DNA of 64,000 nucleotides from Candidatus Bathyarchaeia archaeon (GTDB taxonomy: Archaea > Thermoproteota > Bathyarchaeia > TCS64), in contig JBEKDF010000012.1 of assembly GCA_050014495.1 (NCBI GenBank), positions 1 through 64,000 of the forward strand, given 5' to 3'. The notes beneath the pieces are model-generated. The model saw only the letters and a list, made by a program, of their open reading frames with translations. It ran no database searches and had not been told where the DNA came from. The translations under genes and the position numbers were made by a program. This document shows, piece by piece, positions 36,639-49,299 of this stretch (within the stretch, counting starts at the first letter, position 1; the number at the start of each line of letters is the position of its first letter).

Positions 36639-37298
36639 TTAGCGCCAGACCTTAACGCCCTTCTCGACGAGGTACTGAGCCGCCAAATCCGCGATATCGG
36701 GAGCCTTGAAGGGTATCCGCATCACCTTAATCTGATCAAGAAGGTCCCTATACGTAATCTCCTCACGACCCTTCTTGACATACTGGTCGAGAATAGTCTG
36801 CGCCACCTCCTCAGCAACGCGATACTTCGGACTCAAAGTCCTATAATGATGCTTCAACGCAGCAGCGATCTCATCCCCACTCGCACTATCAAGCGCCCAG
36901 ATAGTCGGACGAGGACCACCCTTACTCGACTGAACCTTCGACACCTTAAGAGCCGGCCCCACAAGACCAACAGCTCGAAGCCTCTTCAACGTCCTATAAA
37001 CCGTAGCCTCGGGTTGATTAAGCTCAGTCTGAAGCACCCAAGCCGTCGCCGCCCCATTCAAACAGAAGTAAAGAAAAGCCTCCGCCACCGCTGGAGAACT
37101 AAAAATGTTCTCACTGAAATTCAGCAACTCCTGAATATTCTTCAACGTAGTAGCGAGATCATTCTTCTCATTAAGCAGAAGCAGCTGGCGAAAGATCTGC
37201 GTATACTTAATAAAATTAGTCTCCTTCGGCGTAATCCTATTAACCGATCGACTTTTATCGCCGTTTAACGCATCTCTCAGGGGCACAACTCGAGCCAT
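36639..37298 (-). CDS. Hypothetical winged-helix DNA-binding protein
   Basis: LQTELNQPEATVYRTLKRLRAVGLV HTH followed by GGPRPTIW wing. Confidence 0.65.
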   Translation of the reverse strand: MARVVPLRDALNGDKSRSVNRITPKETNFIKYTQIFRQLLLLNEKNDLATTLKNIQELLNFSENIFSSPAVAEAFLYFCLNGAATAWVLQTELNQPEATVYRTLKRLRAVGLVGPALKVSKVQSSKGGPRPTIWALDSASGDEIAAALKHHYRTLSPKYRVAEEVAQTILDQYVKKGREEITYRDLLDQIKVMRIPFKAPDIADLAAQYLVEKGVKVWR

Positions 37299-37361: not shown

Positions 37362-37414
37362 TTACTTGTTAACAAGTAAACATGTAAACAAGTTATCTGG
37401 TCGCACTGTAAACA
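37362..37414. promoter_or_regulatory. Operator array: 18-bp palindrome plus 8-bp direct repeats
   Basis: TTACTTGTTAACAAGTAA (37362-37379); WGTWAACA at 37367, 37375, 37383 and 37407, downstream of TATA-like CTTATAAG. Confidence 0.7.
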
Positions 37415-37860
37415 TGACACGCAAGACTGTCGCCATCCGGGGTCTCGATACGGGGCTTTACAATGAGGTATTCTCTATGGCGAAGAAAGATGGTAAGCGT
37501 GTCAGCGATCTAGTGAACTCGGCCCTGAAAGCGTACATTGATGGGGACATAGCCGAAAATGTAGTTTTGCCTGTCGAGGATGGAGGAGAGGTTCAAGCCG
37601 GGGGTAGCTTCATCCTATCAGTCGAGGATGAGGGTGAAGTGACCCTGTCGAAGAACGACGTACTCGACATTAGTAGGGATATGGGCCCATTCAGGATCGA
37701 GAGCAGCGGGACCCTAGTCTTCGAGAAGGATGTTGACGCAGAGGCACTTCGTGGGATTGAGAAGATAGTAATCCTCAGCGGCGAGGTAAAGGTACCGAAG
37801 AAGGCTTATCCCCAGTTCCTTATTAAGTGCCAGATTAAGGGTAAGCTCGAGAAGTATTGA
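37414..37860 (+). CDS. Ribbon-helix-helix (CopG-like) protein with unknown C-terminal domain
   Basis: MTRKTVAIRGLDTGLYNEVFSMAKKDGKRVSDLVNSALKAYI fits the strand-helix-helix pattern; ATG at 37414. Confidence 0.65.
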   Translation: MTRKTVAIRGLDTGLYNEVFSMAKKDGKRVSDLVNSALKAYIDGDIAENVVLPVEDGGEVQAGGSFILSVEDEGEVTLSKNDVLDISRDMGPFRIESSGTLVFEKDVDAEALRGIEKIVILSGEVKVPKKAYPQFLIKCQIKGKLEKY

Positions 37861-38411
37861 GTTCCCTCGACCTCGTTGGAGTAGAGGATGGTGGCTTCAA
37901 GGCATTCCAGCCTGGGCAGTCGACTTTTTTATGTGCTGTCTCGATGGTGGGGAACAGTATCGAGTCCATTGAGTTGAGCAGAATTACGGTCGATGGGAGG
38001 GACGCCACGGAGGTGTTGCTCGGTATGCTTGATACAATCCGCTGTGATGCGGTGATACTCGGAGGCGTCTCCTTCGCCGGGTTCAATATAATGGATCCGA
38101 TGAGATTATACAAGGAATTAGGTGTCCCAGTGATCATTTATTCGGGAGAGAGGCCTGATAGCGCTTCTGTGTTGGCAGCGTTGAAGGTTCACTTCGCTGA
38201 TTGGGAAGTTAGGTGGGCTTCTATTGCGCGACTCGGGGATATTTACAGCCTCATAACAAAGGTGGGTTACAAGCCGGTTTTCTTCGAGGTCGTTGGCGAG
38301 TCGAGAGATTGGTGTGAGAAGGTTCTGAGGTCATCGGCGTCGTTGACGAGGGCGCCGGAGCCGATTAGAGTCGCTAGGATCTTGGCACGTGGCCTCACTA
38401 AAACCGTTTAA
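37857..38411 (+). CDS. DUF99 family protein (endonuclease V-like fold)
   Basis: GVEDG, ITVDGRDAT, GVSFAGFNI, PEPIRVA. Confidence 0.85.
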   Translation: MSSLDLVGVEDGGFKAFQPGQSTFLCAVSMVGNSIESIELSRITVDGRDATEVLLGMLDTIRCDAVILGGVSFAGFNIMDPMRLYKELGVPVIIYSGERPDSASVLAALKVHFADWEVRWASIARLGDIYSLITKVGYKPVFFEVVGESRDWCEKVLRSSASLTRAPEPIRVARILARGLTKTV

Positions 38412-39876
38412 AGTCGAGGTCTAGGGTCTGGTGAGTTTGCAGGTCGAATATTGTGGCAACACCTGTGGTAGGCTCGATCTGCATTCGTTTCTGAAAGGGG
38501 GTCTGATCCTGCCATGAGCCAGCTGAGACTAATGTAACGCCCTTGTATCGCTTAGTCTCGTTAATGTGAATGTGTCCCATGAGCATAGCGTCGGGTATGC
38601 TACCTATAACGAGCCTGTCAGTACGCTCGGGGGCTATGGGAGTACTCTGCCCATAACGAGGGGCGAGATGACGGCATCTGAATAGGAGCTCCATAGCCTT
38701 TATCGGATGGTTGAACTCGTAGCCCGGTGTGCTACTGAGTATATCGTCCAACCCCTTGCCGTGTTCAACGAGAACTTCGACGCCATTGAGGTTAAGCCTG
38801 CATGGACTAGGTAGCATCTTGACACGTGAGTCATCATATAGCTCTTTAGCGTACTCCTTTGGAATAGGTGGTTGGGGCATACTATGGCGAGTAGCGTCGT
38901 GGTTACCGGGTGTTACTACGATCTCGACGTAGTCGGGTAGTTGTTTTAGGAGCTCCGCTGCCACCTTGTACTGCTCACGAATGTCAGTTATCGTAAGCTC
39001 GTCTAACTGCTCAGGATAGATACCAACACCGTCGACGATGTCGCCGGCGATCACAATATATTTAACACGTGCCGCGGCGTCCCTGCTTTGGAGCGGACCG
39101 AGTTCGAGGTTCATCCAGTCAATGAACTTGTCGAAGTAGTCGCCCCTGAAGTATTTTGAGCCGACGTGTACGTCTGCGAGAAAGGCAGCGTATAGTGGTT
39201 CAGGACTTCGACGAGGAGTGTTATTGGGTACATCGGGCCAGATCCAGTTATTTGCTATGAGGAGGTCATCAGTGTACTTTACGGCTTCGACGGCGATAAC
39301 TTGATCTTCTTGGAGCTCCAGCCCATGACGTATGATTTCCTCATCGCTAGCCATGACACTGATTGTGGAGTGACGGTCCTCGAGTTCAATGAATAGTTTG
39401 TTGCCACGTGTTCGTTTCTCGGTAACGATTCCGATAGTCTTGAGCTTGGTCTTTAGAGGGAGCTTAAGAACCTGCTCTATGGATATGGCATCCTTTACAT
39501 CGACGCGACGCTTGAGGATAGTTTCAAGACGGTCATATCGACTCTGAAAATACTCTAGAAACCCCTGAGCATCACTGGCGGGTTGGGCTGGCTCGTCGTC
39601 AAGTACTTTGAGGGGTGTGCCCTTGTCCCTAGCGGGTATTGAGCGGTTTTTTTGAGGAATAGGCTCGGGGCGAGGAGTCTCGACTAAAGTGAGCAGATAA
39701 CCCTTGTCGAGGATAAAGAGAGGCGGAGAGGAAGAATCAGCCTTAAGGACAGCCTTTTGGGATAAAGTGTCGGACGTTTCAGCAGATAACGCCGTGAGAT
39801 AGGCGTAGGCGTCTGGGCTGAGTTGGTAGCCTGCGTCGATTATACGCTGTAGGAACTGGGGTATCCGCTGGCTCAA
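38398..39876 (-). CDS. polD1: DNA polymerase D small (exonuclease) subunit DP1
   Basis: OB fold, DVHVGS, AGDIVDGVGIYP.Q, PGNHD, HG, RHLAP.YG, GHIH. Confidence 0.95.
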   Translation of the reverse strand: MSQRIPQFLQRIIDAGYQLSPDAYAYLTALSAETSDTLSQKAVLKADSSSPPLFILDKGYLLTLVETPRPEPIPQKNRSIPARDKGTPLKVLDDEPAQPASDAQGFLEYFQSRYDRLETILKRRVDVKDAISIEQVLKLPLKTKLKTIGIVTEKRTRGNKLFIELEDRHSTISVMASDEEIIRHGLELQEDQVIAVEAVKYTDDLLIANNWIWPDVPNNTPRRSPEPLYAAFLADVHVGSKYFRGDYFDKFIDWMNLELGPLQSRDAAARVKYIVIAGDIVDGVGIYPEQLDELTITDIREQYKVAAELLKQLPDYVEIVVTPGNHDATRHSMPQPPIPKEYAKELYDDSRVKMLPSPCRLNLNGVEVLVEHGKGLDDILSSTPGYEFNHPIKAMELLFRCRHLAPRYGQSTPIAPERTDRLVIGSIPDAMLMGHIHINETKRYKGVTLVSAGSWQDQTPFQKRMQIEPTTGVATIFDLQTHQTLDLDFKRF

Positions 39877-39896
39877 TGGGTATGCTTCACCATGAT

Positions 39897-40238
39897 TTAC
39901 TTAGCTTTGGCCAAATAGTCTTCGCGTGGAGGGGCAAAGGTCTCTATCAGGATGGTCTCACCTTTGCTAGTGTTTACCCAATCATGACTATCGCCTCCAG
40001 GAATATACCAGCTTGCACCTTTGACGGTATTGTACTTCTTTCCGCCCGAAGTGAGGACACCCTCGCCTTTGATGCAAGTGCCTATCTGGTCGTGGGGATG
40101 TTTGTGATCGGGAACGACAGCCCCAGGTTGGGCTATGATGTATGTTAGCATTACCTTTTCACTACTTCCGAGGATGATGATCTCAACACCCTTAGCGGGG
40201 CTCATACGGGGTGCCTTATCTACACTATTGGTCTTCAT
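39897..40238 (-). CDS. Cupin domain protein
   Basis: PDHKHPHDQ...IPGGDSH...ETFAPPREDY. Confidence 0.9.
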   Translation of the reverse strand: MKTNSVDKAPRMSPAKGVEIIILGSSEKVMLTYIIAQPGAVVPDHKHPHDQIGTCIKGEGVLTSGGKKYNTVKGASWYIPGGDSHDWVNTSKGETILIETFAPPREDYLAKAK

Positions 40239-40427
40239 TCCGCTACTGTGGAGAGATTGAAGGGCTATAAAACCTGCTCGGCGTATATGGTGCTACTACT
40301 CGCGCTCAGTATGAGAAAAAAGCCTAACAAAACAACTTAACTCAATTTTTAGAAGAAAAGACGCCATTTCAAAGTCATTAGGAGTGGAAGTGATTTGTCA
40401 TTCATCTGCATACTTTTAGGAGAGATT

Positions 40428-41096
40428 TCACAAAGTGGGTTTCTGTTCAGGCTGCTGTTGAATTAGGTCGCGAATCTCCTTTCGAACGCTGTAGCGGTAA
40501 GGCATGGAATTTGTGCTACGGTCAACAAAGCCAGATTCATAGAGCTTTTTTAAAGTGCGTGCAGTGTGTTCACGGGTCGTACCGAGATATTCCTTGATCT
40601 CCGGGACTGCCCCCTCCCCAAGCTCGGCGATCTTCTTTAGGGCACTAAACTCAGTCTCAGTCAACTGAGCCAACACATTACCCTGTTGTACGGGGATTGG
40701 GGCCGCGATTTCCTGACCCACAACCACACGTGACTTTGGCACAGAAACGAGCTTCTGAACCTCCTTCCTAATGGACTCAACCTCGGACTCTGTGGAATTC
40801 ATGCGGCTCTGTATAGTCTTCACGACCTCAAGGCCTTTCAGAGTCGTATCCTTAGCCTCACTACTGTTCTTAAGGGCTTCCGATGCAATGATCTTTGCCG
40901 TAGTCGCCTCGTTCTCCGTCTTTGCTATTTCTTGCTGTAAGCGGTTGACTTGACGGGTGAATCCGAAGGTTATATTATGGACGAATTCCCTAGCTCCGTT
41001 ATATTCAGTGGTAGCTTCCTTTATCTTACGATAGAATATGATGGAGGCGGCTACTGTGACCAATAATAGGGCGGCTGCCGTAATTATTAGATCCAA
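40428..41096 (-). CDS. Membrane-anchored coiled-coil protein with C-terminal winged-helix domain
   Basis: N-terminal TM (LIITAAALLLVTVAASIIFY), heptad-rich middle, LTETE...TREHTARTLKKLYESGFVDR...YRY wHTH. Confidence 0.8.
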   Translation of the reverse strand: MDLIITAAALLLVTVAASIIFYRKIKEATTEYNGAREFVHNITFGFTRQVNRLQQEIAKTENEATTAKIIASEALKNSSEAKDTTLKGLEVVKTIQSRMNSTESEVESIRKEVQKLVSVPKSRVVVGQEIAAPIPVQQGNVLAQLTETEFSALKKIAELGEGAVPEIKEYLGTTREHTARTLKKLYESGFVDRSTNSMPYRYSVRKEIRDLIQQQPEQKPTL

Positions 41097-41225
41097 GGTA
41101 TCGCCATCAATACTCTTGTGTGAATATCATCGGTCTAGCTTTTTTATTCTTTGGTTACTCTCACCGCGTAAGGAAATCTAAACTCATCGTTTAATAATCG
41201 TCTCGCCTCTTAGCTTTGAATCGGC

Positions 41226-43550
41226 TTGGGTTCCCCTGGCAGCGTCGAGGCCGAGGTCCATATGACCGGCAGGGTGCAAGGCGTGGGCTTCCGCCCTTTT
41301 ATCTATCGTCTAGCAGTTCGACACGAGCTAAAGGGCTATGTCATCAACCTCGGGGATGCCGGTGTAGAAGCGGTAGTCGAGGGCCCAACTAATAGTATAG
41401 AGGCGTTCATCAAGTCTATTCAAACCGAAGCGCCGCCCGTGTCAGAGATCACTGGAATACACTCATCCTACAGGCCCTACAGAAACAGGTTTAAGGAGTT
41501 TATTATCGATAAAAGCCGGGATAGTAGGCAAGCTATCTCTGGTATCTTCCCACCTGACATTGGGATTTGCCCGAACTGCCTCACTGACATGGCTGACCTG
41601 AAGGGGCGCTGGTTTGAGTATCCCTTTACAGCTTGTGCATGGTGTGGCCCCAGGTTCACAGGTGTCATGTCTCTACCCTACGATAGGGAAAGGACCCACA
41701 TGAACGACTTCCCTATGTGCAAGTACTGCCAGAAGGACTACAGCAACCCCATGAACAGGCGATTCGATGCTCAAGGAATAACATGTAGTGTCTGTGGCCC
41801 TAAGATGAGTCTACTGGACGCCTCGGGATCAGAAATAAAGGTTAGCGACGTCTTCACCGAGGCAGTAAAGTTACTGAGAGAGGGAAGTATTATCGCAGTC
41901 AAAGGAATCGGTGGATTCCATATCGCGGCCCTCGCCACCGAGGATAAGCCAATTGCTAAACTTAGGATCCGAAAGAGTAGGCCATATCAGCCATTCGCAC
42001 TCATGGCGCCTAATCTAGTAGCTACGCAAAGCTTTGCTTCTCCTGATATTTATGAGTCAAGGGCTCTCACCTCGTGGCAGAAGCCTATTGTTCTAGTCAA
42101 GAAGAATGGGAAAGTGATTTCTGATTTGGTTGCGCCAGGCCTCAGCAGGGTAGGCGTCATGCTTCCCTATACGGGAATACATGTGATGCTCTTTAAGAGG
42201 CTGAATGCGCCCGCCCTCGTGATGACGAGTGGAAATAGGTCTGGGTTGCCAATGGTAATATCGAATGAAGCTGCCTTGAGTGAACTTGGCAGCGTCGCTG
42301 ACTACTTTCTTGTCCATAATAGAAAGATCGTGAACAGGTGCGACGATTCTTTAATGCGTATAAATGAGGGAAGGGCAGCTTTCGTTAGAAGGTCACGTGG
42401 ATATGTACCTGACCCTATTGAAATACCTCTAAGTAAAGGCATAGTCTTCGCTGTCGGGACTGAGCAAAGCAACGTTGCTGCGGTTACCCTAGATGGAAGA
42501 TGCTACCAGAGCCAGTACCTCGGAGATGTAATCAATCTAGAGACCATGGAATTCGAAAAAAGTGCTATATTTGCCATGCGTGACCTACTTAAAATCACAC
42601 GTAACCCAGATGTGATAGCCTGTGACCAGCATCCTGGATATATGACATCACAGTTAGCTGAAGTGATATCACAGGAAATGGGCGTAAAAATCACAAAATC
42701 ACAGCATCATCACGCACACGTAATTTCAGTTTGTGCTGAAAACAATATTAAACCAGAAGAAAATGTCATTGGAATAGCCTTAGATGGGGCTGGATACGGG
42801 TCAGACGGCAAAATATGGGGTGGTGAAGTTCTAATATCGACATATTTCGACTATAAACGTGTAGGCCAACTCGAGTATTTGCCAATGCCCGGAGGAGATC
42901 TGTGTACTATATACCCATATAGAATGCTCATTTCAGCCCTCTCTACGATTATGGGAGAAGATGAGCTATGTGATATCACAGAAAATCACATAGTTGAAGC
43001 ATTACCTAACGGTTCAGAAGAACGTAATCTGATTATTAAGCAATCAAAAGCTCAAAACGTATTAAAAACATCAAGTTCCGGTAGATTACTTGATTCTGTC
43101 GCTTCTTTACTTGATTTAACCTATTATAGAACTTATGAAGGCGAACCAGCTATGAGACTTGAAACACTTGCGGAGAATGGAAATCCTAATGCTATAAGAT
43201 ATAAGCCTCAAATTGAAAGAAACAAGGACGTATTAGAGTTAAAAACGATGAATATGTTAAAATATTTAGCTGATAACAAAAATAACCTTAATAAATGTGA
43301 CATAGCAGCTTTTACCCAAAAATATCTATCAGAAGGTGTTATAAGTATAGCAATCGAAGTTGCAAAAGCAGAACACATTCATAAAGTTGCGTTATCAGGT
43401 GGTGTATTAGCTAATAAGTACATCTCACAAAAATTAATAAAAACTATAGAAAGAAGAGGACTTAATGTTTATACGAACACTAAAACTTCGCTTGGGGACG
43501 GCGGTTCTTCTTTAGGCCAATCGTGTATTGCCTTGGCGTCTGTGATATAA
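41226..43550 (+). CDS. hypF: Carbamoyltransferase HypF (hydrogenase maturation)
   Basis: GRVQGVGFRPF acylphosphatase domain, two zinc fingers, KGIGGFH, QHHHAH, DGAGYG, SSSGR, GDGG. Confidence 0.96.
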   Translation: MGSPGSVEAEVHMTGRVQGVGFRPFIYRLAVRHELKGYVINLGDAGVEAVVEGPTNSIEAFIKSIQTEAPPVSEITGIHSSYRPYRNRFKEFIIDKSRDSRQAISGIFPPDIGICPNCLTDMADLKGRWFEYPFTACAWCGPRFTGVMSLPYDRERTHMNDFPMCKYCQKDYSNPMNRRFDAQGITCSVCGPKMSLLDASGSEIKVSDVFTEAVKLLREGSIIAVKGIGGFHIAALATEDKPIAKLRIRKSRPYQPFALMAPNLVATQSFASPDIYESRALTSWQKPIVLVKKNGKVISDLVAPGLSRVGVMLPYTGIHVMLFKRLNAPALVMTSGNRSGLPMVISNEAALSELGSVADYFLVHNRKIVNRCDDSLMRINEGRAAFVRRSRGYVPDPIEIPLSKGIVFAVGTEQSNVAAVTLDGRCYQSQYLGDVINLETMEFEKSAIFAMRDLLKITRNPDVIACDQHPGYMTSQLAEVISQEMGVKITKSQHHHAHVISVCAENNIKPEENVIGIALDGAGYGSDGKIWGGEVLISTYFDYKRVGQLEYLPMPGGDLCTIYPYRMLISALSTIMGEDELCDITENHIVEALPNGSEERNLIIKQSKAQNVLKTSSSGRLLDSVASLLDLTYYRTYEGEPAMRLETLAENGNPNAIRYKPQIERNKDVLELKTMNMLKYLADNKNNLNKCDIAAFTQKYLSEGVISIAIEVAKAEHIHKVALSGGVLANKYISQKLIKTIERRGLNVYTNTKTSLGDGGSSLGQSCIALASVI

Positions 43551-44533
43551 TGTGATATCACATTACTTTAAGCTTGGTTGGATGTGACAATGATTCGATT
43601 CCGAGGGTTAATTCATCTTCTATCCGCTTAAGAATAGCAGGTGATCTCTTACTGCTTGACTTCTCTATAAGAGATAGATACTCTCTCAATTTCTCTGAGA
43701 GATTTTGGTACTCCTCGAAGGGTTTTGAATCATAAATCCCTACATAGCTAAGTAACACTATAGTAAAAATTGAGGATATTACACGATGTCTGGCTTGACC
43801 CAATGTACGGCTAAATGAACCCCGACTGACTTTTCTGGTTCTAAATAAGGTTTTATTCTTTAATGATATCTTTTCATCTGACATTACATCTATTAAGAGA
43901 TCAATCATAAGCGTTTCAAACTGAATCCTTGTTAAATTGCTATTTTTTAGTAATAAGTCAGTAATTGGGTCTTGAAAGGCTTTTTGAATCATATTTTGAG
44001 TTTCTTCTGTAGAATCCATACGGTTTACCTCATTGTTCAATTATATCAATATACGATACTATGGAATACAAAGCTGTATGCCATATTACCCTTTTGATTT
44101 CTTCTCTAATCAAGCTATTTAAGATGAAGTAAATGATAAAATTAATTAACTTGACACTGATCTAGTAAAAAATATAGAATAAATAGTTAAAATTTAACAA
44201 ATATTCCTATCAAATACAGGTTTGGACTCTTAATCATAATTACAAAATAAAAATTACAAGAATCCAAAAAAACTCCCCGAAAATATATAACGATTCGAGC
44301 TAAAGAAATTCCAAAAAATAACAAATAAAATCTTAAGAATAAAAAGCTAATGGTTTAAGAAACTGTGCAATAGATGCAGTTACATAAAAATCCAAGGCTA
44401 TAAAACTCTAAGAATAGAGAAGGTAATTATAATGGCCTATAATTAACGTGATATCACAACAATAACTGATAAAAAATCTCTGTGATGTTCTACTGTGAGA
44501 TTCTCTGAGTCACATGTGACCAGTAGTTATCAC
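42641..44533. repeat. Cluster of GTGATATCAC palindromes and half-sites
   Basis: Perfect 10-mers at 42663, 42970, 43552 and 44448; near copy at 42641; half-sites at 42611, 43541, 44481 and others. Confidence 0.85.
43558..44040 (-). CDS. Conserved archaeal hypothetical protein, probable HTH DNA binder
   Basis: SNLTRIQ...KVSRGSFSRTLGQAR resembles a recognition helix, followed by hydrophobic helix SIFTIVLLSYVG; start may be ATG 44019. Confidence 0.7.
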   Translation of the reverse strand: MNNEVNRMDSTEETQNMIQKAFQDPITDLLLKNSNLTRIQFETLMIDLLIDVMSDEKISLKNKTLFRTRKVSRGSFSRTLGQARHRVISSIFTIVLLSYVGIYDSKPFEEYQNLSEKLREYLSLIEKSSSKRSPAILKRIEDELTLGIESLSHPTKLKVM

Positions 44534-44780
44534 GCTAATTCTGTCTTTGATTTGATAAAGACATAGACTTTCATTAAGATCGTGGGACCTATGATACAAT
44601 AGTAAACTGTTAGGTTATTTAATAAATAACTATGCCAACAGACGGCGCTAGTGTAATCAGCAAAGTACATGTAATCGGAATCCTATAAAAAAATACTTGT
44701 TAAGATATGTAAAAGTTGAGAAGGTAATCAAGATACTAATAGGGACAGCACCCAACGATTATAAGTTCGTGCCTCCGGCA
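44041..44780. other. Very AT-rich ~740-bp intergenic region; candidate replication origin or chromosome-organising site
   Basis: Hand count 11/60 GC at 44161-44220 versus about 50% elsewhere; no ORF; divergent flanking genes; DP1 and DP2 point away from it. Confidence 0.55.
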
Positions 44781-44831
44781 ATCTTAAGACTAAGATAACC
44801 CCTTACCTTAACGCTATACGGAGATAAGTTC

Positions 44832-45083
44832 ATGGGAAGAAGAAGGAAAAAGGAAGAAAAGATTATCAGAAGGACATTGCCAGAGCTGTTCCTCTGCCCC
44901 AAGTGTGCCAAGAACTCCATAAAAGTCACAATAGATCCTAAGAACAATCTCGCTGGTATACGTTGCAGTGCATGTGGGCTCCATGGACGAATAACCATTG
45001 TGCCCAACACCGCCCCAGTAGACGCATACAGTACATACGTCGACAAATACTACGAGGATGGAGCAGCGCAAAAAGTTGGTTAG
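44832..45083 (+). CDS. elf1: Transcription elongation factor Elf1
   Basis: MGRRRKK...LPELFLCPKC...CSAC...VDAYSTYVD. Confidence 0.9.
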   Translation: MGRRRKKEEKIIRRTLPELFLCPKCAKNSIKVTIDPKNNLAGIRCSACGLHGRITIVPNTAPVDAYSTYVDKYYEDGAAQKVG

Positions 45084-45828
45084 TCGAGTAGAGCAACTCA
45101 TCCAAGAGAGGATAAGAAAGGAGGGGTGTATACATATGACCCTCCTTGACCCAGAAAAGAAGTCGGGCTATGACTGTGCCGTCATCGCGAGGGATGCAGA
45201 GGCAGGGGGCACCGCGGCCATCATGGTTGGTGGGAGCACTGTCGCCTCGGGTGTGGAGATGGAGGACGTAGTCAAGAGAATCAAGGCCAATGTTAGAATC
45301 CCTGTTATAATCTTCCCGAATAATATCGCCAGTATTACAGGCGCAGCTGATGCAATGTGGTTTATGAGTCTACTAAATAGCGCTAACACTTACTACCTCA
45401 TAGACAGCCAAGCAATTGGCGCGCCTATGGTGAAAAAGCTGGGACTTGAGACGATGCCTATGGGCTATATAATCGTCGGCTACGGTGGCGCAGCGGGATA
45501 TGTCGGACAAGCACGGGTCATCCCATATGATCGCCCAGAACTTGCGGTTGCTTACGCATCAGCAGCTGAGCTCCTAGGTATGCGTTATATCTACCTCGAG
45601 GCTGGTTCCGGAGCCCCACAGCCGGTCTCACCTATTATGATTAGTGCCGTAAGCAAGTACTGTAAAAGTACCCTGGTGGTTGGGGGTGGGATACGGGATG
45701 CGAAAGCGGCAATAGCTGCCAAGATTGCTGGCGCTCAGATAATCGTCACAGGAACCCTCGTGGAGGAGGAGAGTAAGGTGATGGACCGTATACGTGAAAT
45801 AACAACTGCCCTCACAGCCCAAGCCTAA
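45076..45828 (+). CDS. Geranylgeranylglyceryl phosphate synthase (group II)
   Basis: TLLDPEK, IMVGGST, YLEAGSGA, VGGGIR, VTGT; TTG start at 45076 assumed. Confidence 0.93.
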   Translation: MVSRVEQLIQERIRKEGCIHMTLLDPEKKSGYDCAVIARDAEAGGTAAIMVGGSTVASGVEMEDVVKRIKANVRIPVIIFPNNIASITGAADAMWFMSLLNSANTYYLIDSQAIGAPMVKKLGLETMPMGYIIVGYGGAAGYVGQARVIPYDRPELAVAYASAAELLGMRYIYLEAGSGAPQPVSPIMISAVSKYCKSTLVVGGGIRDAKAAIAAKIAGAQIIVTGTLVEEESKVMDRIREITTALTAQA

Positions 45829-45858
45829 TTATCCACCTCCACACCATACCTTCTAGAT

Positions 45859-48800
45859 TTGAGCCAGCTCCGTATGACGCCAGAGTATAGAGCTTACTTC
45901 GACGAACTAGACAATAAGCTGGCCAAGCTTTACGAGGTCGCGGGTGAGGCAAAAACTAAGGGCCTAGATGCATCTAGGGAAGTCGAGGTACAGATCACCC
46001 ACGACATTGCCGAGCGTGTCGAAAAGATGCTGGGGCCACCCGGACTCACTGTTAGAATGAGAGAGCTCGAGGGCATGGACCGCAGGGAGATGGCTTTCAA
46101 AATAGCAGAGGAGATAACTCTCGGCCGATTCGGTAGTTTTGATAAGGAAAAGTCTGCGGACCAAGCAATCAGAACCGCCCTTGCGATAATGACAGAGGGT
46201 GTTACTGTAGCTCCTATCGAGGGCCTCCCAAAGATAGTCATAAAGGTCAACCCTGACCGCACACAATATCTCAGTCTCTACTTTGCTGGCCCTATACGCC
46301 CAGCTGGTGGCACCGCTCAGGCCATGACACTTGTAGTCGCTGACCATGTGAGGAAACGCCTCGGCTTAGATAAGTTTCAGCCGAGCGAGAATCAAGTGCA
46401 GCGCTTCATCGAGGAGGTGCGCCTATACGAACGCACAGTACGCCGCTTCCAATATCACGTAACGGATGAGGACCTCGAGGCAGCCATCCGCCAGATACCT
46501 GTAGAAGCCACAGGAGTCGCAACAGACCCTTTCGAGGTAAGCAACTACCGGGATATTGTAGGTATTGAGACGAATAGACTCCGAGGCGGGGCTCTTATCG
46601 TAGTCGTAGATGGCATCGTGGGCCGCGCTCGTAAGCTTCACGGTGCTTGCGATAACCTCGGGGTAACTGGCTGGGAGTGGCTCCTGAAGATGGGTAGGAA
46701 GAAAAAGGTAGAAGGGGAGGAGAAAGCGGAGCCTACCGCTGCCTTCATGGATGAGATAATCGTTGGGCGCCCGGTCTTCAGCTTTCCTGGTGCAGTGGGT
46801 GGTTTTCGCCTACGTTACGGTCGCGCTAGAAACACCGGTCTTGCTGCTAGCGGCGTTCACCCAGCCACTATGGTCATCCTCAATAAGTTCCTCGTCACGG
46901 GCGTTCAGATGCGTACCGAGCTCCCAGGAAAATCGGCTGCTACGTGTCCGGTTGACTCGATTGAGCCCCCCGTCGTAAGGCTGAAAGACGGCTCAGTGCA
47001 GCGTGTCGAGACCGAGATAGAGGCGGAGAGGCTTCTGCCCTTGGTAGACAGAATACTCTTCCTAGGTGATTACCTAAGTAATGCGGGGGACTTCATTCAA
47101 AACAATAAGGCTCTCCTCCCTACAGGTTATGATGAGAATCAGTTTATTCAGGATCTCAGAGCAGCTTGCACACATGTAGGGGATGATGCTGCTGTGAGCC
47201 TAACCGGGCTCCTGGCGGAGAGGATTGCGTACCTTAGGTCAAGCCCGCTCAATAAGCCCACAGTTGACGAGGCTCTTGCCCTGACCTCGATGGACGTACC
47301 TATCCACCCCCGCTGGAATTACCACTGGTCCGCCCTTACAAGGGATGAGATCATATCCCTAAGGAACAGTCTCGCGTCCGAGTACAGTCCAGACTCAACT
47401 GAGTTCCCCAACTTCCCAGAGGTGAAATCCGCTTTAGAGAGGCTTCTCATCCCTCACAGGGTAAAAGGTGGCCATCTCGACTTGGGTGAGGACGCCCGCG
47501 TCGTCGCCAGGACCTTGGACCTCAAGCAAAGATACACAGAGATCAAAGGAGAGAAGCCATTAGAGGTGATTAATTTCCTCGCCGACTTTCCGGTGAGGGA
47601 AAAGGTAGGTGTTTTCGTCGGTGCTCGTATGGGGCGACCTGAGAAGGCGAAGGAGCGTAGGATGGCCCCATATGTCCATTGTCTCTACCCCGTAGGGGAG
47701 GCCGGTGGACCTCAGCGCGACATCCTCAAAGCGGAGAAGGGGAAGGTCGTCAGAGTTGAGCTCTCGCAACGTCAGTGCCTAAACTGTGGGGATATCGGGC
47801 CGACTACTGTCTGTCAGAACTGCGGAGGTGAGACTAAGGAGATACGCAGATGCAGCCGTTGCGGTCTCAGATTCGAGGGTGAGCGCTGTCCTCAGTGCCG
47901 ATCTGAGATAGTATCATATGCAAGTGTTGATGTCGACCTCAAGGAGGAATTGGAAGCCGCCCGGAAGATGATAGGGGGGCAGCTCCCGGGGCGTGTGAAG
48001 TGCGTAAAGAGACTCATGAACCAGACCAGGACTCCTGAGCATCTTGCCAAGGGCATCCTCAGGGCCCGATACGACCTAAGCGTTTTCAAGGATGGGACAC
48101 TCCGATTCGACCTCACCGACATACCTCTCACACACTTCAAACCAAGCGAGGTTGGCGTATCGGTGGATGTTCTTCGATCGCTCGGCTACACCCACGACAC
48201 AAACGGCGAACCACTGGTGGAAGAGGGCCAAATGCTAGAGCTCAAAGTGCAGGACGTGATTCTCCCGGAGGACTGTGGGGATTATCTCCTGAAGGTATCT
48301 AAGTTTCTGGACGAACAACTCCGCGATTTTTACAAGATGAAGCCCTTCTATAACGCGAAAAGCCGTAGTGATCTAATCGGCAGCCTATTGTTAGGGCTCG
48401 CGCCTCACACATCCGCTGCCATCTCAGGGAGGCTTGTGGGCTTCACAAGAGTTCGGAACCAGTACGCTCATCCTTTATGGCACGCGGCTAAGCGTAGAAA
48501 CTGCGATGGCGACGAAGATGCCGTGATGCTCGCCCTTGACCCACTCCTCAATTTCAGCAAGGCTTACCTCCCGCAGCAGAGCGGAGGCCAGATGGACGCG
48601 CCCTTATTTGTCATACCCATCCTCAACCCAAGCGAGGTCGATAAGGAAGCCCACAACCTCGATGTGAATGAGAGCTACCCACCCGAGTTCTATAGTCTCT
48701 GCGCTGAGGGTGCTGGGAGCGGACAGTATGGTGCCCTCGTTGACACCATAGGAGCCCGCTTGGGTACTGAAGCTCAGTTCCAAGGATTTAGTTACACCGA

Positions 48801-49299
48801 GGAGTGCAGCGACATTAACCTCGGCAGCTTCCACGGAGCCTACAATACCCTAACTACGATGGTGGATAAGTTGGATAGCCAGCTGGAGCTTGCGTCAAAA
48901 CTTCGTGCTGTCGACTCGAGGCAGGTAGCTCTAAAGATCCTCAATAGTCACTTTATGAAGGACATTGTGGGTAATCTCCGAGCCTTTACGAGTCAGACCT
49001 TCCGTTGTACTAAATGCAACAGGAAGTACAGGCGTCCGCCGCTGAGTGGGAAGTGTCAACGCTGCGGTGGCTCAATTCAGATGACAGTCCATAGGGGAGG
49101 CATAGAAAAGTACCTGAAGACTGCCCTTGATATGGTGAAGAAGTATGACTTAGACCAGTATTACGTAGACCGCCTTGAGTTAGTCAGTCTAGAGATCGGG
49201 CAGATCTTCGTCGAGGAAGCAGTCCCCGAGGAGCTCTCGAAGCAGTTCAGCCTTACTGAATTTATGAGGGGTGGAACTGAGAGGAAGCCGGTACAGTAA
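45859..49299 (+). CDS. polD2: DNA polymerase D large subunit DP2 (no intein)
   Basis: YFAGPIR.AGGT, GFRLRYGR, RMGRPEKA, KDGT.RFD, KRRNCDGDED, C-terminal zinc finger; 1146 aa. Confidence 0.97.
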   Translation: MSQLRMTPEYRAYFDELDNKLAKLYEVAGEAKTKGLDASREVEVQITHDIAERVEKMLGPPGLTVRMRELEGMDRREMAFKIAEEITLGRFGSFDKEKSADQAIRTALAIMTEGVTVAPIEGLPKIVIKVNPDRTQYLSLYFAGPIRPAGGTAQAMTLVVADHVRKRLGLDKFQPSENQVQRFIEEVRLYERTVRRFQYHVTDEDLEAAIRQIPVEATGVATDPFEVSNYRDIVGIETNRLRGGALIVVVDGIVGRARKLHGACDNLGVTGWEWLLKMGRKKKVEGEEKAEPTAAFMDEIIVGRPVFSFPGAVGGFRLRYGRARNTGLAASGVHPATMVILNKFLVTGVQMRTELPGKSAATCPVDSIEPPVVRLKDGSVQRVETEIEAERLLPLVDRILFLGDYLSNAGDFIQNNKALLPTGYDENQFIQDLRAACTHVGDDAAVSLTGLLAERIAYLRSSPLNKPTVDEALALTSMDVPIHPRWNYHWSALTRDEIISLRNSLASEYSPDSTEFPNFPEVKSALERLLIPHRVKGGHLDLGEDARVVARTLDLKQRYTEIKGEKPLEVINFLADFPVREKVGVFVGARMGRPEKAKERRMAPYVHCLYPVGEAGGPQRDILKAEKGKVVRVELSQRQCLNCGDIGPTTVCQNCGGETKEIRRCSRCGLRFEGERCPQCRSEIVSYASVDVDLKEELEAARKMIGGQLPGRVKCVKRLMNQTRTPEHLAKGILRARYDLSVFKDGTLRFDLTDIPLTHFKPSEVGVSVDVLRSLGYTHDTNGEPLVEEGQMLELKVQDVILPEDCGDYLLKVSKFLDEQLRDFYKMKPFYNAKSRSDLIGSLLLGLAPHTSAAISGRLVGFTRVRNQYAHPLWHAAKRRNCDGDEDAVMLALDPLLNFSKAYLPQQSGGQMDAPLFVIPILNPSEVDKEAHNLDVNESYPPEFYSLCAEGAGSGQYGALVDTIGARLGTEAQFQGFSYTEECSDINLGSFHGAYNTLTTMVDKLDSQLELASKLRAVDSRQVALKILNSHFMKDIVGNLRAFTSQTFRCTKCNRKYRRPPLSGKCQRCGGSIQMTVHRGGIEKYLKTALDMVKKYDLDQYYVDRLELVSLEIGQIFVEEAVPEELSKQFSLTEFMRGGTERKPVQ

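Follow-up and report, generated by a model that had tools for sequence, protein, structure and literature searches.

The interval between the PolD genes DP1 and DP2 of a Candidatus Bathyarchaeia archaeon was found to contain an array of palindromic DNA sites, which lies in what comparison with other orders identifies as the ancestral origin region of Bathyarchaeia and whose likely binder, judged from sequence comparison, is a membrane-anchored winged-helix protein encoded at the same locus. The sequence analysed (the window) is 64,000 nucleotides long, positions 1 to 64,000 of contig JBEKDF010000012.1 (C12), and belongs to a genome, G000, of 3.1 Mb in 92 contigs with 96% completeness. Below, "the order" means the Bathyarchaeia order of this genome, and relatives are cited by codes (G for genomes, f for families, L for loci). 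Quite possibly, and in our view as the best explanation, the array at this ancestral origin locus is a protein-docking platform of ancient age that ties the region to the membrane via the winged-helix protein.

The palindrome GTGATATCAC occurs at positions 42663, 42970, 43552 and 44448, that is, four times in 1.8 kb; shuffled sequence gave a mean of 0.07 and a maximum of 1 copy per window. One perfect copy lies in an AT-rich gap, two lie inside codons of hypF, and one lies across the stop codon of X160, the helix-turn-helix (HTH) gene abutting the gap. The palindrome cluster reported in a preliminary description of this DNA is therefore real and its position is kept class-wide, though the gap itself holds only one perfect copy. 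Analysis of the repeating unit revealed the half-site RTCACR, of which 23 are present in 42551–44600 (2.05 kb; shuffle mean 3.0, maximum 10, 1000 shuffles), grouped in four clusters, A to D. This array is the densest 2-kb window for RTCACR in the genome; in G000 the next-densest windows consist of repeats, tandem or coding, and no second cluster was found elsewhere. Short tandem CAGTCAC-type repeats at C16 17430–17640 and C14 17980–18150 are unrelated to the array. Exact palindrome copies at the locus, relative to the whole genome, number four of eight in G000, four of five in G012, four of four in G015 and two of three in G021, and the array was found at one location per genome. Half-site spacings peak at 10–11, 21–22 and 30–32 bp across relatives, which are related genomes and not independent samples.

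Comparison within the order showed that site C is retained as GTGAYRTCAC in 23/23 hypF genes while the encoded residues differ (C/R, I/V). Cluster A keeps 5–7 half-sites in all six order genomes in which nadE, the gene otherwise found at the gap position, is broken, and it is the sole alignable stretch of the gap. Since site C stays despite residue changes and cluster A stays in a dead gene, selection acts on the DNA itself. The half-site resembles the yeast centromere element CDEI, whose binder is unrelated, and the likeness was treated as coincidence.

The membrane winged-helix protein is the product of 40428–41096. Its structure model has a long helix (residues 2–118) and a winged HTH domain (wHTH, residues 147–214), with a transmembrane (TM) segment predicted at residues ~3–21 and no sensor domain outside the membrane. 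The gene is present in 110 of 201 phylum genomes. A TM segment was predicted in all Bathyarchaeia sequences but two and in families f20, f27, f31, f32 and f37; none was predicted in the versions of f22, f24, f25, f30, f38, f40, f44, f46 and f47. To identify the binder, 81 genomes were examined around X160. Four X160-bearing genomes without the winged-helix partner have 0–1 half-sites (2–4 expected), and in families without a detected X160, 9/10 genomes hold 10–16 half-sites near the partner (4–7 expected). Genomes with the canonical REH(T/S) helix in the partner mostly carry 10–29 half-sites, among them five f20 genomes with 10–18; where the helix is divergent, the count is 2–7. Because the array co-occurs with the winged-helix partner and vanishes where the partner is lost and X160 kept, the partner is likely the array's binder. 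X160 was rejected in that role on the same genomes. Of the array, site binder and membrane tether proposed in the preliminary description, an array with a membrane tether is the hypothesis that we favour, and the implied assignment of the HTH gene as binder is contradicted. Where the gene pair is detached from cdc6 it still lies near the origin, at 12–33 kb in the three TM-bearing genomes checked, which favours the anchor. On contig C1 of G066, whose family lacks both the TM segment and X160, ~190 kb separate Orc1-1 from the winged-helix gene and its array.

The features of the locus are as follows:

36639..37298, minus strand: W219, a winged-helix protein particular to the order that occupies the place of a lost origin-flanking gene, and a candidate replacement initiator.
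37366..37860, plus strand: ribbon-helix-helix (RHH)-like gene, likely start 37414, at the lost cdc6-1 position and directly upstream of Endo_dU.
37367..37393, plus strand: tandem 8-bp repeats of GT(A/T)AACA that follow a TATA-like box, likely the operator of the RHH-like gene.
37857..39876, both strands: block of Endo_dU (plus) and PolD DP1 (minus), inverted relative to other orders.
40428..41096, minus strand: membrane-anchored coiled-coil winged-helix protein with the helix REHTARxLKKL, the likely array binder.
41226..43550, plus strand: hypF, with clusters C and D in its 3′ half, where synonymous GC is depressed.
42579..42714, no strand: site cluster D, palindrome 42663–42672 plus half-sites, within hypF.
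42969..42990, no strand: site cluster C, palindrome 42970–42979, within hypF.
43541..43588, no strand: site cluster B, palindrome 43552–43561, overlapping the X160 stop codon, its position constant across the class.
43558..44040, minus strand: X160, a protein with a Tfx/sigma-4/LuxR-type HTH, origin-proximal in much of the phylum.
44041..44831, no strand: AT-rich gap, a decayed nadE relic.
44447..44534, no strand: site cluster A, palindromes 44448–44457 and 44509–44520, which outlasted nadE decay.
44832..49299, plus strand: Elf1, GGGP synthase and PolD DP2, the conserved right flank.

DP1 (38398–39876, minus) and DP2 (45859–49299, plus) diverge from the gap, and every gene between them faces away from it with the exception of hypF; Endo_dU and the gene at 37366 lie just outside the interval and face toward it. 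The preliminary description was correct on this arrangement, on the gene identities and orientations, on an HTH-like gene abutting the gap (X160), on a membrane-anchored wHTH gene in the interval (TM segment, long helix and winged helix, all predicted) and on the absence of an orc1/cdc6 gene and of origin recognition boxes (ORBs), the last searched for in 36–52 kb. No Rfam match was found in 36–56 kb, and a bacterial promoter scan gave results at chance level.

The gap, described earlier as ~740 bp and very AT-rich, is real and measures 791 bp with 30% GC, but it ranks only 11th among AT-rich 740-bp windows of the 3.1-Mb genome. Among the 34 order genomes examined, nadE is intact at this position in 28 and broken in 6; the gap is a nadE pseudogene, not an intergenic element dedicated to unwinding. 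Three other sequencing runs yielded contigs that agree with the gap stretches that they cover. A related strain (run X12) has 24 differences and 3 gaps in 385 bp at 44318–44692, with ~1–2% divergence in the flanking genes, which is consistent with neutral decay of the relic. In the adjoining hypF, GC at 4-fold sites falls by quarter from 0.53 to 0.47, 0.31 and 0.23.

X160 has no Pfam hit, and its structure model has a mean confidence (pLDDT) of 85. A homologue matches TIGR00721 Tfx (E 1.9e-6, 27.8 bits, below the cut-off of 60.25), X160 itself giving no hit, and structural comparison gave a weak match (Z 6.0, rmsd 2.9, 64 aligned residues) to the DNA-binding domain of EsrB, so that X160 looks like a Tfx/sigma-4-type HTH protein. 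Foldseek found no match at E ≤ 0.001 in PDB or BFVD; four weak BFVD rows labelled "DnaA C-terminal" (E 0.9–3.2) were not significant, and VIA-align gave a best Z of 7.0 on generic helix pairs. Sequence searches of PDB were uninformative for X160 and W219, and in PHROGs none of X160, W219 and the RHH-like gene had a match. The gene is present in 103 of 201 phylum genomes and may play an accessory role at the array.

In other orders the genes typically run DP1, Endo_dU, cdc6, spacer, ORF3, membrane winged-helix gene, X160, Elf1, GGGP synthase and DP2, with DP1 co-oriented with DP2 and cdc6-1 upstream of Endo_dU. ORB cores were found in the spacer beside cdc6-1 in 5/7 other-order loci. Since Orc1-1 and ORB-like sites are present at this locus in other orders, and the strand skew of the cdc6-bearing control genome G207 flips at this place (see below), we conclude from these comparisons that the locus is the ancestral Bathyarchaeia origin region. 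The origin-type Cdc6 (Orc1-1) scores highly in 13 of 16 other-order genomes versus 1 of 59 order genomes. That single case, G027, was rejected as a true exception, its Orc1-1 grouping closely with the family of another class in a quick tree; it shares the small contig C37 (L104) with a fragment of ORF3, probably through bin contamination. ORF3, a small gene encoding an N-terminal domain and a winged helix (e.g. L091 5632–6039), stands beside ORBs across much of the phylum and is present in 90/107 other-order genomes versus 2/44 order genomes (one a contaminant, one weak); it was lost together with Orc1-1 in the order. ORF3 was also not found in 7/9 f9 genomes, of which G049, G054 and G059 keep Orc1-1.

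The locus in G000 has no Orc1-1 gene and no ORB or mini-ORB in 36–52 kb. Contig C29 holds the sole Orc1/Cdc6 of the genome, which groups with the second, non-origin paralogue of G207 (quick tree, support 100) and would thus be of Orc1-2 type, a label based on PMC3914693. In Sulfolobus, Orc1-2 is a damage-response regulator (PMC6061795), and loss of Orc1-1 is reported in Thermoproteales and Korarchaeota (PMC3914693, PMC4010727). The genome has 25 ORB-core matches, all isolated. Upstream of the one cdc6 that remains stands a lone ORB-like core (C29 19330; L033 7331), which is absent from the other order loci checked and is probably a chance match. A long ORB pattern found nothing, control G207 included, and since it misses the control this search is uninformative. 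No report of Orc1-1 loss in Bathyarchaeia, of the array or of the gene pair was found in a literature search of listings and abstract openings that covered few subscription papers, and look-ups by sequence and by place likewise gave nothing on X160, W219 or the locus.

Relative to Endo_dU, the divergent pair of W219 and the RHH-like gene stands where cdc6-1 and ORF3 once stood. W219 is present in 43/44 order genomes and 0/107 others; the RHH-like gene is present in 43/44 and, more weakly, in 17/107. In most relatives W219 is at least as conserved as PolD (for example, identities of 97% and 70% where DP1 has 85% and 52%). It has a TrmB-like HTH match below the cut-off and no NCBIfam hit; its profile gave one weak match in 200 other phylum genomes, and no relatives were found in viral contigs. 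Paralogues of W219 adjoin an integrase gene, a HerA-like ATPase gene and HTH clusters; their neighbours look regulatory, with no helicase in the short flanks covered. Neither a conserved iteron nor an AT-rich spacer was found downstream of W219. The RHH-like gene has weak Omega_Repress matches in 2/6 orthologues scanned. The 13 order loci shown all keep the GT(A/T)AACA repeats before it; these occur nowhere else in the genome and are probably its operator. W219, which lies outside the interval of the preliminary description, is on these sequence grounds the best candidate for a non-Orc1 initiator. In Sulfolobales copG lies beside whiP, a neighbour with which we compare the RHH-like gene beside W219. 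Elsewhere in G000, C9 19–25 kb has small open reading frames (ORFs), a 638-aa ATPase-like gene and higher GC, and resembles an integrated mobile element.

Strand skew was used to determine whether replication still starts at the locus. In control G207, which keeps cdc6, the orientation-corrected synonymous skew flips there, with a purine change point at 104 kb for a locus at 115 kb (z -4.2) and a lead-minus-lag AT skew of -0.165 (z -6.35). No flip was seen in three order genomes: the lead-minus-lag AT value is -0.012 in G016 (null standard deviation, sd, 0.037; 140 kb sampled on a 517-kb contig), -0.027 in G021 (sd 0.016; 1.22 of 2.30 Mb) and -0.025 on the window contig of G000 (sd 0.055). Neither raw nor gene-corrected skew of G021 in 61 windows has a significant change point; for AT the best one, at 289 kb, is near the locus and has the control's sign, but with p=0.51. 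G021 has no regional bias at all, and long-range skew is weak or patchy across the order. In G000 the strand-linked AT bias has r 0.41–0.43 and mostly decays within ~20 kb; in G000 and on C10 of G016, patchy strand-linked AT skew on a 10–40 kb scale changes sign frequently. With no regional bias in G021 and patchy, mostly short-range bias in G000 and G016, the skew test loses power, and the pairwise estimator is noisy even in the control. Possible causes of the patchiness are rearrangement, dispersed initiation and noise in ORF calling. Of the origin with a non-Orc1 initiator put forward in the preliminary description, the origin locus without cdc6 is borne out, given the Orc1-1 and ORB-like sites of other orders, the flip in G207 and the lack of Orc1-1 in the order; present-day origin activity gains no support from skew in the three order genomes.

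Base composition and gene orientation count in favour of a present-day origin. Synonymous GC of X160 is depressed in the order (median -1.41 logit, 14 genomes), while the other 27 genomes have group medians of -0.15 and -0.14, with G054 and G194 as exceptions. The dip coincides with the array-bounded 2 kb. The DP1–Endo_dU block is inverted in the order, so that DP1 faces away from the array.

For the anchor, we infer the following mechanism. The membrane winged-helix protein, encoded 1.5 kb from the array, would bind the RTCACR sites directly; as the half-sites are phased at 10–11 bp, it may oligomerise via its coiled coil, with the winged helices coating the phased half-sites. Bound protein would hold origin-region DNA at the membrane and so organise this part of the chromosome, with a part in positioning or segregation like that of the bacterial RicO and RocS, and would cooperate with SMC without a clear ParA. 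SMC is present in G000; no ParA/SegA was found at the locus, and G000, G012 and G229 gave no AAA_31 match at E ≤ 1e-15. The predicted plan of a TM segment, a ~100-residue helix and a wHTH with no extracellular sensor parallels that of RicO and RocS, and the array is not a simple promoter operator. Several points weigh on the other side. Binding and membrane localisation are deduced from sequence, and the fold matches of the protein are generic MarR, ArsR and AspA winged helices with similar E-values. Co-occurrence of array and partner rests on about three independent losses. The TM helix is absent in several array-bearing families outside Bathyarchaeia, so tethering is not a universal role, and tethering alone does not explain the order-specific AT enrichment in the array or the W219 replacement. 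The sites also form one 2-kb cluster near the gene, whereas the nine sites of RicO spread over ~700 kb.

One rival explanation is a transcriptional role. The array would then be an operator system through which the membrane winged-helix protein controls neighbouring genes (X160 and replication genes) as well as its own, possibly by looping, with origin proximity as inherited synteny. The MarR/TrmB-like fold, the TM-less versions of the protein and the 4–9 half-sites within 200 bp of the partner start in 9 of 20 genomes, a count that also tells against the anchor, are in its favour. However, the other 11 genomes have at most one half-site there (none in G000), some gene starts in these counts being estimates, and hypF-type loci place full sites 1.5–3.4 kb from the partner promoter, within hypF and nadE. 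The partner may regulate itself, but autoregulation does not explain an array kept at that distance inside other genes. There is, moreover, no second half-site cluster in G000 and no sensor domain outside the membrane, and we consider the transcriptional explanation somewhat unlikely. Of similar standing is the proposal that the locus is still an origin after loss of Orc1-1, with W219 as a WhiP-like initiator and the AT-rich, array-bounded 2 kb as unwinding domain; W219 and the RHH-like gene would likely have been captured from a mobile element, and the proposal is compatible with a tether. It is favoured by the complementary distribution of W219 and Orc1-1, by the positions that the new pair occupies, by the integrase and HerA genes beside W219 paralogues, and by the order-specific GC dip and inversion. 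Against it stand the missing skew flip, the lack of an iteron or AT-rich spacer downstream of W219, the single weak phylum match and absence of viral relatives, and the regulatory-looking, helicase-free surroundings of the paralogues; the order-specific changes also all fall on one branch and count as one event. It is doubtful, and we rate as unlikely, that the order swapped its Orc1-1/ORB origin for a mobile-element winged-helix initiator acting in an AT-enriched 2-kb domain that is held at the membrane by the phylum-wide array. That chance or mere relics account for the features, with conserved codons and an AT-rich pseudogene behind them, is highly improbable: the gap is indeed decayed nadE and ten genome regions are more AT-rich, but shuffle tests speak against chance, the array keeps its position across the class, and sites survive in dead sequence and at synonymous positions, so that this explanation is already largely refuted.

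Comparison with known systems places the anchor closest in plan to two bacterial proteins. RicO of Staphylococcus aureus binds a specific origin-proximal motif, ricS (bioRxiv 10.64898/2026.03.06.710092), and RocS of Streptococcus pneumoniae combines a DNA-binding domain, a coiled coil and a membrane anchor in one small protein (PMC13042908). The archaeal protein has the same three-part plan in one small protein, the comparison being by domain plan alone; its anchor is an N-terminal TM helix, in contrast to the C-terminal amphipathic helix of RicO and RocS. Hosts of RicO and RocS have SMC and an incomplete par system, and G000 has SMC and no strong ParA. SegAB and AspA-ParB-ParA (PMC7617429) share with the locus palindromic centromere-like sites clustered near an origin and a winged-helix protein, here the likely binder of the sites, and AspA is among the fold matches; they differ in that the locus has no ParA/SegA and the AspA match is no better than those to MarR/ArsR. 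MarR/TrmB autoregulators share the winged-helix fold and, in the nine genomes above, promoter sites, but in the other eleven the sites are mostly in neighbouring coding sequence kilobases away. The locus would work like an origin anchor and is neither a member of ParABS/SegAB nor an Orc1/ORB origin. For Thermoproteota, the accessible text of a review describes SegAB of Sulfolobus only, with the mechanism not understood (PMC7617429). The protein, site consensus and locus described here are all present in f20, which appears to comprise cultured ammonia oxidisers, and so the membrane-tether hypothesis is testable.

Among archaeal origins, the Orc1-1/ORB type oriC1 (PMC4010727, PMC3914693) occupies the same locus elsewhere in Bathyarchaeia, whereas Orc1-1, the flanking gene and ORBs were not found in the order. 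An order without Orc1-1 is a natural experiment on archaeal replication without the canonical initiator, and W219 is a specific candidate to set against origin-independent replication. The likeness to WhiP/oriC3 of Sulfolobales (PMC4010727, PMC5333045, PMC3914693) lies in a winged-helix gene with mobile-element relatives at an ORB-less locus, and brings to mind how whiP was captured at oriC3 in Sulfolobus. It is a likeness by gene context, W219 having one weak phylum relative and a candidate initiator role only. If both the tether and the exchange of initiators were true, the locus would represent a centromere-like origin anchor in Thermoproteota together with a second family of non-Orc1 chromosomal initiators after WhiP.

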